Positions 3,001-52,992 of a DNA stretch of 64,000 nt are shown one piece after another. Position numbers and translations under genes: made by a program. The stretch comes from Escherichia coli. GTDB lineage: Bacteria; Pseudomonadota; Gammaproteobacteria; Enterobacterales; Enterobacteriaceae. Below the pieces are notes generated by a model, which saw only the letters and a program-made list of their open reading frames with translations, made no database searches and was not told where the DNA came from. The stretch lies in the NCBI RefSeq assembly GCF_003790525.1, contig NZ_CP033635.1; one strand, 5' to 3'. Numbering within the stretch: position 1 is the first letter of the stretch; each line of letters starts with the position of its first letter.

Positions 3001-3779
3001 CCCGCGAACAGAAACTGGCGATCAGTTCCCGCAGCGTGGCGAACATCATCCGTAAAACCATTCAGCGCGAGCAGAACCGTATCCGTATGCTCAACCAGGG
3101 CTTGCAGAACGTATCGTTCGGTCAGGTGAACAGCGTGCGCCTCAACGTGAACGTGCGTGAAACGCATGCCATGCTGCTGGATGTGCTCTCTGAACAGCAC
3201 GAGCAACATCAGGATCTGTTTAACAGCAACCGTCTGACCTTCTCGGAAGCGCTGGCGAAACTGTATCAACGTCTTAACCCGCAGATTGATATGGGGCAGC
3301 GCACGCCGCAGACCATCGGTGAAGAACTGCTGGATTACCGCAACTATCTGGAAATGGAAGTTGAGGTTAACCGTGGTTCCGATGGCTGGCTGCGCGCAGA
3401 ATCTGGCGCTCTGTCGACCGGTGAGGCGATTGGTACCGGTATGTCGATTCTGGTGATGGTGGTACAAAGCTGGGAAGATGAATCTCGCCGCCTGCGCGGT
3501 AAAGATATCTCTCCTTGCCGCCTGCTGTTCCTCGATGAAGCAGCGCGACTGGATGCTCGTTCCATCGCCACGCTGTTTGAATTGTGTGAGCGTTTGCAAA
3601 TGCAGCTCATCATCGCAGCGCCGGAAAATATCAGCCCGGAAAAAGGCACCACCTATAAACTGGTGCGTAAAGTCTTCCAGAATACCGAACACGTTCACGT
3701 AGTCGGTCTGCGTGGTTTTGCACCGCAACTCCCTGAAACGCTTCCAGGAAGTGACGAAGCGCCTTCCCAGGCGAGCTAA
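1..3779 (+). CDS. mukB: Chromosome partition protein MukB (SMC-like condensin), 5'-truncated by window edge; C-terminal about 1250 aa present
   Basis: Long coiled-coil-rich ORF (heptad-like E/Q/R/L-rich sequence) ending in a C-terminal ATPase head segment ([11 protein letters not shown] Walker-B-like); reading frame is open to the window start; matches MukB from memory. Confidence 0.93.
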
Positions 3780-27465: not shown

Positions 27466-27551
27466 TTTTTTTGCCACAGGTCAATTCCCTTTTGGTCCGA
27501 ACTCGCACATAATACGCCCCCGGTTTGCACACCGGGAATCCAGGAGAGTTC

Positions 27552-28562
27552 ATGTACTACCCCTTCGTTCGTAAAGCCCTTTTCCAGCTCGATCCAGAGC
27601 GCGCTCATGAGTTTACTTTTCAGCAATTACGCCGTATTACCGGAACGCCGTTTGAAGCACTGGTGCGGCAGAAAGTGCCTGCGAAACCTGTTAACTGCAT
27701 GGGCCTGACGTTTAAAAATCCGCTTGGTCTGGCAGCCGGTCTTGATAAAGACGGGGAGTGCATTGACGCGTTAGGCGCGATGGGTTTTGGATCTATCGAG
27801 ATCGGTACCGTCACGCCACGTCCACAGCCAGGTAATGACAAGCCGCGTCTCTTTCGTCTGGTAGATGCCGAAGGTTTGATCAACCGTATGGGCTTTAATA
27901 ATCTTGGCGTTGATAACCTCGTAGAGAACGTAAAAAAAGCCCATTATGATGGCGTCCTGGGTATTAACATCGGCAAAAATAAAGATACGCCGGTGGAGCA
28001 GGGTAAAGATGACTATCTGATTTGTATGGAAAAAATCTATGCTTATGCGGGATATATCGCCATCAATATTTCATCGCCGAATACCCCAGGACTACGCACA
28101 CTGCAATATGGCGAAGCGCTGGATGATCTCTTAACCGCGATTAAAAATAAGCAAAATGATTTGCAAGCGATGCACCATAAATATGTGCCGATCGCAGTGA
28201 AGATCGCGCCGGATCTTTCTGAAGAAGAATTGATCCAGGTTGCCGATAGTTTAGTTCGCCATAATATTGATGGCGTTATTGCAACCAATACCACGCTCGA
28301 TCGTTCTCTGGTTCAGGGAATGAAAAATTGTGATCAAACCGGTGGCTTAAGTGGTCGTCCGCTTCAGTTAAAAAGCACAGAAATTATTCGCCGCTTGTCA
28401 CAGGAATTAAACGGTCGCTTACCGATCATCGGTGTTGGCGGCATTGACTCGGTTATCGCTGCGCGTGAAAAGATTGCTGCGGGGGCCTCACTGGTGCAAA
28501 TTTATTCTGGTTTTATTTTTAAAGGTCCGCCGCTGATTAAAGAAATCGTTACCCATATCTAA
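27552..28562 (+). CDS. pyrD: Dihydroorotate dehydrogenase (quinone), 336 aa
   Basis: Matches PyrD from [21 protein letters not shown]; class 2 DHODH. Confidence 0.95.
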
Positions 28563-28594
28563 TTATTTCTTCGAATTCCTCTTTATAAGATAAT

Positions 28595-28628
28595 CAGGGC
28601 TTTATTTTAAGCCCTGGTTGTTTTATAT
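28595..28628 (+). terminator. Intrinsic terminator of pyrD
   Basis: Stem cagggct...agccctg followed by gttgtttt. Confidence 0.6.
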
Positions 28629-28735: not shown

Positions 28736-29278
28736 ATGCGAATTAAACCAGACGATAACTGGCGTTGGTATTACGATGAAGAGCACGATCGAATGATGCT
28801 CGATTTAGCCAATGGTATGCTATTTCGCTCACGTTTTGCGCGCAAAATGTTGACTCCAGATGCCTTTTCTCCCGCAGGCTTTTGCGTTGACGACGCCGCG
28901 CTCTATTTCTCATTTGAAGAAAAATGCCGCGATTTTAATTTATCTAAAGAACAAAAAGCCGAACTGGTGCTTAATGCGCTGGTAGCAATTCGTTATCTCA
29001 AACCGCAAATGCCGAAAAGCTGGCATTTTGTTTCCCATGGTGAAATGTGGGTGCCCATGCCGGGCGATGCGGCCTGCGTTTGGTTGAGCGACACTCACGA
29101 GCAAGTCAATTTGCTGGTCGTTGAATCTGGCGAAAATGCCGCACTATGCCTGCTGGCACAACCCTGCGTTGTTATAGCGGGTCGCGCGATGCAGCTGGGC
29201 GACGCCATCAAAATCATGAACGACAGGCTGAAACCGCAGGTTAATGTTGACAGCTTCAGCCTCGAACAGGCAGTTTAA
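28736..29278 (+). CDS. zapC: Cell division protein ZapC (YcbW), 180 aa
   Basis: Matches ZapC from [24 protein letters not shown]. Confidence 0.9.
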
Positions 29279-30384
29279 CGCGTCAGCTTAAGTGCAGTCT
29301 TCGGTACACAACTACAGCAAAGAATAGTGCCATCATCACCCATTGCTGATTTTTTCAGCGGCGTGACTTCGCCTTCTAAAAGCTGAACACGGCAACTTCC
29401 ACAAATGCCCGCGCGGCAAGAATAAGGGATACGAATTCCCTGATTTTCTAATTGCTCCAGCAGCACCTGTTGGTTATTTCCACGAAATGCCTGTCCCTGC
29501 CAGTCAATATCTACGTTTGCGTCCGGTTGTTGCGTGATGTTGGCAGTATCATCGGCGGCACCTGCGCCGTAAATTTTAGCTGGAGCCGTTGCCAGAATTT
29601 CCACCTCATCGCCAACGCGAATCACGCCGCTATTACGGGCAATTAAATTCTGACCAAAATCGACATCGCCGTTATCCTGGGCAGTACGGAAAGATTGCAG
29701 CGTTTTTAATGGTTCGCCTGCCGGATGTTTTTGCCCTTTTTCTGGGCTGACGGTGGTGAAAATACAGCGGCTACAAGGCTTAACCACATCAAACACGACA
29801 TCACCAATGCGAATCACTTTCCAGCTATCTTCTTCCCAGGCCGATGCACCGGAAACCACCAGATTGGGGCGGAATTGCTCCATTTTTACACTGGCCGGAC
29901 AACGTTGTTGGAGATCACGTAACGAGGCCTCGTTAGCAAGAAGGTAAGGATAACCATCAGCAAATGACAGGGGTACAGTGTTGTGGCGTTTCACGCGCCG
30001 GGTCATTTGTGGCCCCACCCAGCGTAATTGCACTTCGCGGGAGAAAAATCCACTTAGCCATTTGTTGATCGCGTCTGGCGCAATTCGCGCGGTAAAATGT
30101 GTGCCCCAAACTTCGGTTGGTGCGTCTTGTGTGGCGAAATCAGCAAAACGAACATATGCACTACTGCCATCTGGTGCGGTGAGATGCAAGCCATCATGCA
30201 CGGGTGAAGGAGTAAACCGTACCATTAGCGGAAACTGGCGAGCGGTAATAAACGTACCGTCAGGTTCCGTGATCATAAAGATGCGATCGAAGGCCAGACC
30301 ACTGACATCTGCCAGGGTATGTGTAAGACCAATGCCGCGCATCGATTTAACAGGATGAATAAAAAGCCGGGTTAATGTCGCCAC
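29275..30384 (-). CDS. ycbX: MOSC-domain protein with C-terminal 2Fe-2S ferredoxin domain, YcbX, 369 aa
   Basis: C-terminal plant-type ferredoxin cysteine pattern (CRAGICGSC...C); N-terminal MOSC beta-barrel; stop overlaps the zapC stop. Confidence 0.9.
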
Positions 30385-30481
30385 GGTGCGGTCCTCAAAT
30401 GAAAATAAGCCCTCAACTTTATGACATGACGCGCTTATTAGCTATAATGCGCAACAATTTTCTTAGAGTAAAAGTGACGAT

Positions 30482-43786: not shown

Positions 43787-44416
43787 ATGAAAAGCCTCTC
43801 CTATAAGCGGATCTATAAATCACAAGAATACCTGGCAACGTTGGGCACAATTGAATACCGATCATTGTTTGGTAGTTACAGCCTGACTGTTGACGACACG
43901 GTGTTTGCGATGGTTTCTGATGGTGAGTTGTATCTTCGGGCTTGTGAGCAAAGTGCACAGTACTGTGTAAAACATCCGCCTGTCTGGCTGACATATAAAA
44001 AGTGTGGCCGATCCGTTACCCTCAATTACTATCGAGTTGATGAAAGTCTATGGCGAAATCAACTGAAGCTGGTGCGTCTGTCGAAATATTCTCTCGATGC
44101 AGCGCTGAAAGAGAAAAGCACGCGCAATACCCGGGAAAGACTGAAAGATTTGCCCAATATGTCTTTTCATCTGGAAGCGATTCTCGGGGAGGTGGGGATT
44201 AAGGATGTACGGGCGTTACGTATACTTGGGGCAAAAATGTGTTGGTTGCGACTGCGGCAGCAAAACAGTCTGGTGACAGAAAAGATTCTGTTTATGCTTG
44301 AAGGGGCCATTATCGGCATTCATGAAGCTGCGCTCCCGGTGGCTCGCCGCCAGGAGCTTGCAGAATGGGCTGACTCTCTTACGCCGAAACAGGAGTTTCC
44401 TGCGGAACTTGAGTAA
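43787..44416 (+). CDS. sxy: Competence regulator Sxy (TfoX), 209 aa
   Basis: Matches Sxy/TfoX in length and sequence. Confidence 0.92.
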   Translation: MKSLSYKRIYKSQEYLATLGTIEYRSLFGSYSLTVDDTVFAMVSDGELYLRACEQSAQYCVKHPPVWLTYKKCGRSVTLNYYRVDESLWRNQLKLVRLSKYSLDAALKEKSTRNTRERLKDLPNMSFHLEAILGEVGIKDVRALRILGAKMCWLRLRQQNSLVTEKILFMLEGAIIGIHEAALPVARRQELAEWADSLTPKQEFPAELE

Positions 44417-52713: not shown

Positions 52714-52992
52714 ATGTCGAAAGTCTGCATAATTGCCTGGGTTTACGGGCGAGTTCAGGGCGTAGGATTCCGCTACACCACGCAGTACGAAGCGAAAAAA
52801 CTGGGACTAACCGGGTACGCCAAAAATCTTGACGATGGCAGCGTGGAAGTGGTTGCCTGCGGTGAAGAAGGGCAGGTAGAAAAATTAATGCAGTGGTTAA
52901 AAAGTGGCGGCCCGCGTTCTGCGCGTGTAGAACGGGTGCTCAGCGAGCCGCATCATCCCTCGGGGGAATTAACCGATTTTCGTATCCATTAA
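52714..52992 (+). CDS. acyP: Acylphosphatase (YccX), 92 aa
   Basis: Acylphosphatase signature (VQGVGFRY...GYAKN); start placed at [16 protein letters not shown]. Confidence 0.9.

Follow-up and report, generated by a model that had tools for sequence, protein, structure and literature searches.

The convergent genes zapC and ycbX of Escherichia coli end on the same four bases. With good confidence we read this arrangement as an ordinary tail-to-tail overlap of 4 nt between two real and unrelated genes, locked in place by the mutual dependence of their stop codons and producing transcripts that are terminated by Rho. ZapC is a cell-division factor, and ycbX is a molybdoenzyme/ferredoxin gene. 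We studied the pair in a window of 64,000 nucleotides, the whole stretch of E. coli DNA analysed here, and coordinates given without the name of another genome or locus refer to that window.

The overlap is already known: it stands in public annotation, the class of convergent genes that share a YTAR tetramer has been described since 2007, and both the overlap of the transcripts and their dependence on Rho are contained in published K-12 data. The junction is a clean worked example and matters little beyond that. What the present analysis adds is, first, that the feature conserved across the Enterobacteriaceae is the geometry of the junction, not the palindrome on which it happens to fall in this strain. 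Second, the base changes allowed there are exactly those that leave the protein of one gene unaltered and the stop of the other intact. Finally, the locus has a lineage history, with relatives outside the family using short spacers, one of which contains a hairpin.

Geometry and reality of the junction

Positions 29270-29279 read gcagTTTAAc. On the plus strand, zapC (28736-29278; 180 aa; supported as an open reading frame and by Pfam, PDB and RefSeq) finishes as GCA GTT TAA, that is, Ala179-Val180-stop, with the TAA at 29276-29278. On the minus strand, ycbX (29275-30384; 369 aa; supported as an open reading frame and by Pfam and RefSeq) finishes in the reverse complement of 29275-29289 as AAG CTG ACG CGT TAA (K-L-T-R-stop), and its TAA is the reverse complement of 29275-29277. 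The two coding sequences overlap by 4 nt at 29275-29278, a TTAA tetranucleotide of the general form YTAR that contains both stops, 2 nt being common to the two codons. The first-pass annotation had placed both stops on one TTAA with no intergenic bases between the genes, and on this central point it was correct.

Both reading frames are real genes. ZapC carries the Pfam domains ZapC_N and ZapC_C and matches PDB entries 5FO3 and 5E1L over residues 1-180, the span over which the protein was crystallised; an NCBIfam search gave no match for ZapC, and its identification comes through Pfam and PDB. YcbX carries the Pfam domains MOSC_N, MOSC and Fer2, the last of these a C-terminal 2Fe-2S ferredoxin domain that stops at residue 362, an architecture expected of this protein.

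The same 4-nt overlap is already present in RefSeq annotation of SMS-3-5 (NC_010498.1, 100% identical to the window), of a K-12-like laboratory strain and of MG1655, where zapC occupies 1005952..1006494 and ycbX 1006491..1007600. It is therefore neither an error nor new. We looked for an alternative true stop of either gene, such as a sequencing error that changed the frame would have hidden, and found none, as stops and frames are the same across independent genomes. That a sequencing or annotation error has misplaced one of the stops, so that there is no true overlap, has practically no chance of being right. The junction is annotated identically in independent genomes, the locus is found in 5425 of 5426 complete E. 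coli genomes, and 30-mers that span the junction match exactly in at least 4138 genomes for its CTAA version and at least 169 for its TTAA version. Frames and stops are also the same in 72 of 80 Enterobacteriaceae species genomes (the best 80 of 326 loci), and the crystal structure of ZapC extends over residues 1-180. These comparative data rule out such an error as the cause of the overlap.

Conservation of the overlap and constraint on its four bases

The species comparison used one genome per species and a ZapC alignment as the query. We retained the best 80 of 326 loci, all of them from Enterobacteriaceae, with a ZapC identity of at least 79% and with zapC and ycbX convergent in all 80. 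The 4-nt overlap occurs in 72 of these 80 species representatives, from Escherichia to Buttiauxella, and in 74 of 82 loci when two E. coli loci are added to the best 80. Around the junction, the two proteins behave differently: the C-terminus of ZapC (QAV followed by the stop) is invariant in an alignment of 16 genera, and the last seven residues of YcbX, the tail after CSCVPKT, vary in sequence and keep a constant length in the 74 overlapping loci. Of the eight loci among the best 80 that do not have the 4-nt form, five have the genes apart, by 6, 10, 16, 45 and 70 nt, and three have longer overlaps, of 13, 23 and 23 nt. As they are scattered among genera whose relatives retain the 4-nt form, the loss of this geometry looks secondary.

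These exceptions (L009, L029, L030, L040, L043, L058, L068 and L081, with the junction near position 3043 in each) include a Citrobacter amalonaticus strain, Lelliottia, Huaxiibacter, two Raoultella, Yokenella and two Enterobacter sp. Only two zapC genes in the set end in TGA, and both belong to these eight loci.

The tetramer itself is less uniform than the geometry. At the 74 overlapping junctions (drawn from the best 80 of 326 loci and the two E. coli loci) it reads TTAA in 62, CTAA in 7 and TTAG in 5. The MG1655 junction is GTC-TAA, that is, CTAA, and the ycbX stop there is TAG. We counted alleles within E. coli by megablast with 30-nt queries, in which an exact word of 28 nt must cover the variable base. 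Of the 5426 complete genomes, at least 4138 have CTAA and at least 169 have TTAA as in the window, the remainder differing elsewhere in the 30-mer. The palindromic TTAA is a minority allele within E. coli. The first-pass annotation had pointed out that the tetramer is palindromic, but the comparison supports no significance of this: the junction may be TTAA, CTAA or TTAG across genera, and K-12 itself has CTAA. We considered and rejected any significance of the palindrome, because CTAA predominates in E. coli and both TTAG and CTAA are found in other genera. What is conserved is the geometry, and the palindrome is incidental.

The reading frames explain which variants can occur. Position 1 of the tetramer serves as third base of the Val180 codon in zapC, and its complement closes the ycbX stop codon; this position permits only T or C. 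Position 4 closes the zapC stop codon, and its complement is the third base in the last amino-acid codon of ycbX; this position permits only A or G. The observed variants correspond exactly to what the geometry allows, each being silent in one gene and preserving the stop of the other. Val180 carries T or C in its third base in 80 of 81 sequences; for the remaining conserved Val codons of zapC, taken together, the figure is 46%. Among 31 conserved fourfold-degenerate sites this base ranks second-lowest in entropy, with only Ala25 still less variable, in statistics that ignore phylogeny.

Once fixed, the overlap would have been held by the constraint that the two stop codons place on each other, as any change beyond T/C at position 1 or A/G at position 4 would remove a stop. 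Loss of its stop would lengthen ZapC by 35 codons and YcbX by 59, and the geometry is probably kept because losing either stop adds these codons. Selection is thus the presumed reason for the persistence of the overlap.

To place its origin we turned to more distant taxa, from which eight ZapC loci were sampled one by one. Brenneria goodwinii (ZapC 60% identity) has pyrD-zapC, a convergent ycbX and rlmL, with a spacer of 8 nt between the convergent genes. Candidatus Erwinia impunctatus (ZapC 44%) has a zapC/ycbX spacer of 38 nt (L090:3044-3081), which contains a perfect palindromic hairpin, ACCGCTTACC-CGG-GGTAAGCGGT. Within this distant sample, ycbX is convergent to zapC in these two Enterobacterales loci and in locus L087. 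At Aeromonas, Photobacterium and two further loci, rlmL follows zapC and tblastn found no ycbX. The pyrD-zapC-rlmL neighbourhood is thus old, and the junction with zero spacer appears to be a fixation at the level of the Enterobacteriaceae. The overlap probably became fixed early in that family, when a zapC-ycbX spacer that was already short vanished.

Two observations from the distant loci deserve mention in their own right. The hairpin in the Candidatus Erwinia impunctatus spacer resembles a classical bidirectional terminator, and the Enterobacteriaceae have none at this place. At L087:3007-3049, where ZapC is 40% identical, zapC and the MOSC/Fer2 gene share 43 nt and both end in TGA, taking the gene ends as called.

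Transcript ends and the mode of termination

As there is no spacer, the 3' UTR of each mRNA is necessarily antisense to the coding sequence of the partner. Published data from K-12, whose sequence here runs colinear to the window with 37 mismatches over 1301 nt, show where these transcripts end. In Adams et al. 2021 (eLife, PMC7815308, Supplementary file 1), a Term-seq 3' end of the zapC strand is given at MG1655 1006586 (+) and put in the antisense class with respect to ycbX. It is a single table entry, apparently from the LB OD 0.4 tab, and the coordinate corresponds to position 51 of the 61-mer printed in that table (PMC7815308). The end lies 92 nt past the zapC stop, inside ycbX, and maps by sequence to 29370. 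By colinearity, the zapC 3' UTR in the window would run on the plus strand from 29279 to 29370, antisense to the last ~31 codons of ycbX.

The same study compared DirectRNA-seq with and without bicyclomycin over 800-nt comparison windows, an approach that gives approximate positions (PMC7815308, Supplementary file 2), and it reports a Rho region on each strand. For the region at 1006647 (+), reads upstream and downstream were 159/33 in untreated cells and 179/269 in bicyclomycin-treated ones (Rho score 7.24, p = 1.1e-24). For the region at 1006040 (-), they were 91/23 and 72/79 (Rho score 4.34, p = 7.4e-8). The first peak lies ~153 nt past the zapC stop and corresponds approximately to 29431 on the plus strand of the window. 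The second falls within zapC around codon 30, ~451 nt beyond the ycbX stop, and corresponds approximately to 28824 on the minus strand. A search of the tables of Adams et al. over 1005700-1006899 by coordinate prefix gave no further entry, and no discrete 3' end of the ycbX strand is curated there (PMC7815308).

These data bear directly on two statements of the first-pass annotation. That each mRNA runs antisense into the partner gene is confirmed in K-12 by the zapC-strand 3' end at +92 within ycbX, by the Rho regions on both strands and by the listing of the pair as an excludon, discussed below. That the arrangement leaves no room for a terminator on either strand does not follow: terminators need not be intergenic, and the K-12 data place termination inside the partner coding sequence and make it Rho-dependent. 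We infer that the K-12 RNA data carry over to the strain of the window. Rho, and not a hairpin terminator, would then end transcription by acting on the untranslated RNA past each stop; the zapC transcript would reach roughly 90-150 nt into ycbX, and the ycbX transcript as far as ~450 nt into zapC. Past the zapC stop, the first ~180 nt of RNA are C-rich, with a C/G ratio of 1.2-1.8, and past the ycbX stop the ratio is 1.0-1.5, values to be read in the light of the general tendency of antisense coding sequence to be C-rich.

Rho-terminated transcripts are in general trimmed after termination, and Adams et al. cite Peters et al. 2012 and Dar & Sorek 2018 on Rho-dependent termination of 3' UTRs and antisense RNAs (PMC7815308). 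The zapC/ycbX transcripts resemble the Rho-terminated 3' UTR and antisense RNAs of that study in their bicyclomycin-sensitive loss of coverage past both stops. They also resemble them in having a 3' end ~90 nt or more past a stop near a small stem-loop, as expected after exonuclease trimming. They differ in that the Rho substrate here is wholly antisense coding sequence of the neighbouring gene and not intergenic RNA.

The stem-loop in question, GCUGA-UUUUU-UCAGC at 29345-29359 on the plus strand, has a stem of 5 bp and sits 11 nt upstream of the mapped 3' end. Together with an adjacent hairpin that extends to 29373, it folds at -13.7 kcal/mol (z = -3.05). No U-tract follows it, it is antisense to the codons L-K-K-S-A, and all five pairs are present in 27 of 75 Enterobacteriaceae loci. 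We therefore rejected it as an embedded intrinsic terminator: it has no U-tract, it is fully paired in only that fraction of loci, and its sequence is the antisense of conserved codons. At most, it may act as an exonuclease stop for the Rho-terminated RNA.

Other searches for structure gave little. Folding of the junction itself revealed no structure on either strand (z = +0.44 and +0.84), and folding of ~250 nt downstream of each stop gave structures no more stable than those of shuffled sequences (z about -1). We found no GC-rich hairpin with a U-tract, of the kind that would make a bidirectional intrinsic terminator, on both strands at or just past the stops. In a consensus scan, 29425-29441 came up on both strands and 29457-29473 on the plus strand as weak sites resembling terminators, the nearest at +147 or beyond.

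It is against these results that termination by intrinsic hairpins inside the coding sequences, or by a head-on collision of RNA polymerases positioned by a hairpin, must be weighed as a replacement for Rho. The two small adjacent hairpins at 29345-29373, with the mapped 3' end at 29370 just past the first of them, and the weak sites of the consensus scan are what such a model would build on. There is also precedent, as intrinsic terminators are predicted within the partner for ~20% of convergently overlapping genes (PMC2174442), and collision-driven bidirectional termination has been demonstrated at ynaJ-uspE (bioRxiv 10.1101/2022.10.23.513370). However, the first hairpin has the shortcomings given above, the drop in coverage in K-12 is abolished by bicyclomycin on both strands (PMC7815308), and the collision model needs an intergenic hairpin (bioRxiv 10.1101/2022.10.23.513370), of which zapC/ycbX has none, the junction itself being unstructured. 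We consider this alternative very improbable.

Overlapping bidirectional intrinsic terminators are reportedly found between convergent genes by SEnd-seq (Ju et al. 2019). Like the pairs for which such terminators and the collision model have been proposed, zapC and ycbX are convergent and have transcripts that overlap at their 3' ends; unlike them, they have neither an intergenic hairpin nor U/A tracts. The orthologous junction of Candidatus Erwinia impunctatus, with its palindromic hairpin in a 38-nt spacer, represents an alternative solution at the same locus.

A strong intrinsic terminator does exist nearby, in the spacer between pyrD and zapC. Its hairpin at 28584-28626 folds on the plus strand at -25.7 kcal/mol (z = -8.4) and is followed by GGUUGUUUUAUAUU. 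Given this terminator 3' of pyrD, zapC is probably transcribed from a promoter of its own within the 173 bp that separate it from pyrD. The core hairpin of the minus strand has a folding energy of -14.3 kcal/mol (z = -3.7) and is also marked as terminator-like in the consensus scan; it could possibly serve as a backstop for read-through on the ycbX strand. An Rfam scan of the whole window found no family at the junction and returned only the PyrD leader and a tRNA. The leader (RF02373, 97.9 bits) lies at 27484-27557 on the plus strand, upstream of pyrD.

The overlap class and the question of coupling

Convergent genes that share their stops form a recognized class. In the survey of Lillo & Krakauer 2007 (Biol Direct, PMC2174442), the most frequent length of overlap is 4 nt, 58 convergent overlaps are counted in E. 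coli, and CTAA, TTAA, CTAG and TTAG figure as the tetramers in which convergent stops can coincide. The authors also point out that the terminators of convergently overlapping genes must sit in the coding sequence of the partner (PMC2174442). The zapC/ycbX pair shares the defining traits of this class, namely coding sequences on opposite strands with both stops in one YTAR tetramer and an overlap of 4 nt, and nothing essential is different (PMC2174442). For membership in the class, we found that both genes are real, that both stops lie in a single YTAR tetramer and that orthologues conserve the arrangement. Judged by the 2007 count and by the pairs of the window, a 4-nt convergent overlap is not statistically unusual as a class. 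The window holds nine convergent pairs of coding sequences, of which three overlap, two of them by 4 nt on TTAA.

The other two overlapping pairs have both been listed as excludons. The stops of yccX (+) and tusE (-) fall on TTAA at 52989-52992 (ccaTTAAat), and the pair appears in the ExcludonFinder list (PMC12288877). The convergent genes sxy (+, ending at 44416) and yccS (-, ending at 44379) overlap by 38 nt at 44379-44416 and are a convergent excludon of MG1655 (PMC12288877).

The alternative with most to recommend it concerns not how the transcripts end but what their overlap might do. ExcludonFinder (Sanmartin et al. 2025, NAR, PMC12288877) places zapC-ycbX among 165 convergent excludons of MG1655, a list of pairs recovered in 50% or more of 58 RNA-seq samples from MG1655. 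If the pair were a functional convergent excludon, the antisense 3' overlap would set expression of the two genes against each other, by transcriptional interference, by RNase III cleavage of the RNA duplex or by both, and the overlap would have been conserved for the sake of this coupling. We think this unlikely, although several observations speak in its favour besides the listing itself: excludon pairs as a group are more syntenic than other pairs (PMC12288877), the overlap is kept in 72 of 80 Enterobacteriaceae species (best 80 of 326 loci), and transcription of ycbX weakly prefers sigma-S (PMC3141248) while zapC acts in dividing cells, the one hint of reciprocal expression, which leaves room for reciprocity between growth phases. 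The deep conservation of the overlap and the excludon listing would also be predicted by functional antisense coupling.

However, the listing is not independent evidence, because a definition based on coverage is met automatically by any co-expressed pair whose coding sequences overlap. Eight scattered Enterobacteriaceae lineages have lost the 4-nt geometry, and outside the family the junction of relatives contains a spacer, in one case with a classical hairpin, which suggests that the exact overlap is dispensable. To our knowledge, there is no functional link between ZapC and YcbX, which also counts against coupling. Validation by p19 capture of double-stranded RNA is infeasible for convergent excludons in general (PMC12288877), and Rho holds antisense read-through to ~20-25% of the upstream signal in untreated cells (PMC7815308). 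With convergent excludons the pair shares the position of neighbouring convergent genes whose 3' transcription overlaps; it differs in that mutually exclusive expression, by interference or RNase III, is the defining functional trait of excludons (PMC12288877), whereas the overlap of the zapC and ycbX transcripts is a geometric necessity. Regulatory coupling of the two genes is possible but unproven, and on grounds of parsimony we favour an overlap that has no dedicated regulatory function.

A more specific form of the coupling idea is that selection fixed the zero-spacer junction throughout the family for the reciprocal antisense transcription, tuned by Rho, that it imposes on zapC, a growth-phase gene, and on ycbX, which encodes a detoxification enzyme weakly linked to sigma-S, so that shifts in Rho activity or growth phase would alter the balance between them. 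We regard this as quite unlikely. Were the excludon interpretation true, cell-division control would be tied to a stress and detoxification gene through Rho, a hypothetical consequence that we hold to be rather doubtful. The plain 4-nt overlap with Rho-terminated transcripts remains the reading we prefer.

Finally, the far side of ycbX differs between strains. The spacer between ycbX and rlmKL, which holds the promoters of both, is 97 bp in the window (30385-30481) as against 243 bp in K-12 (L083:3602-3844). The K-12 spacer contains an insertion of 146 bp that is bordered on both sides by direct repeats, CTTAG(C/A)G, and resembles a small mobile element or repeat.
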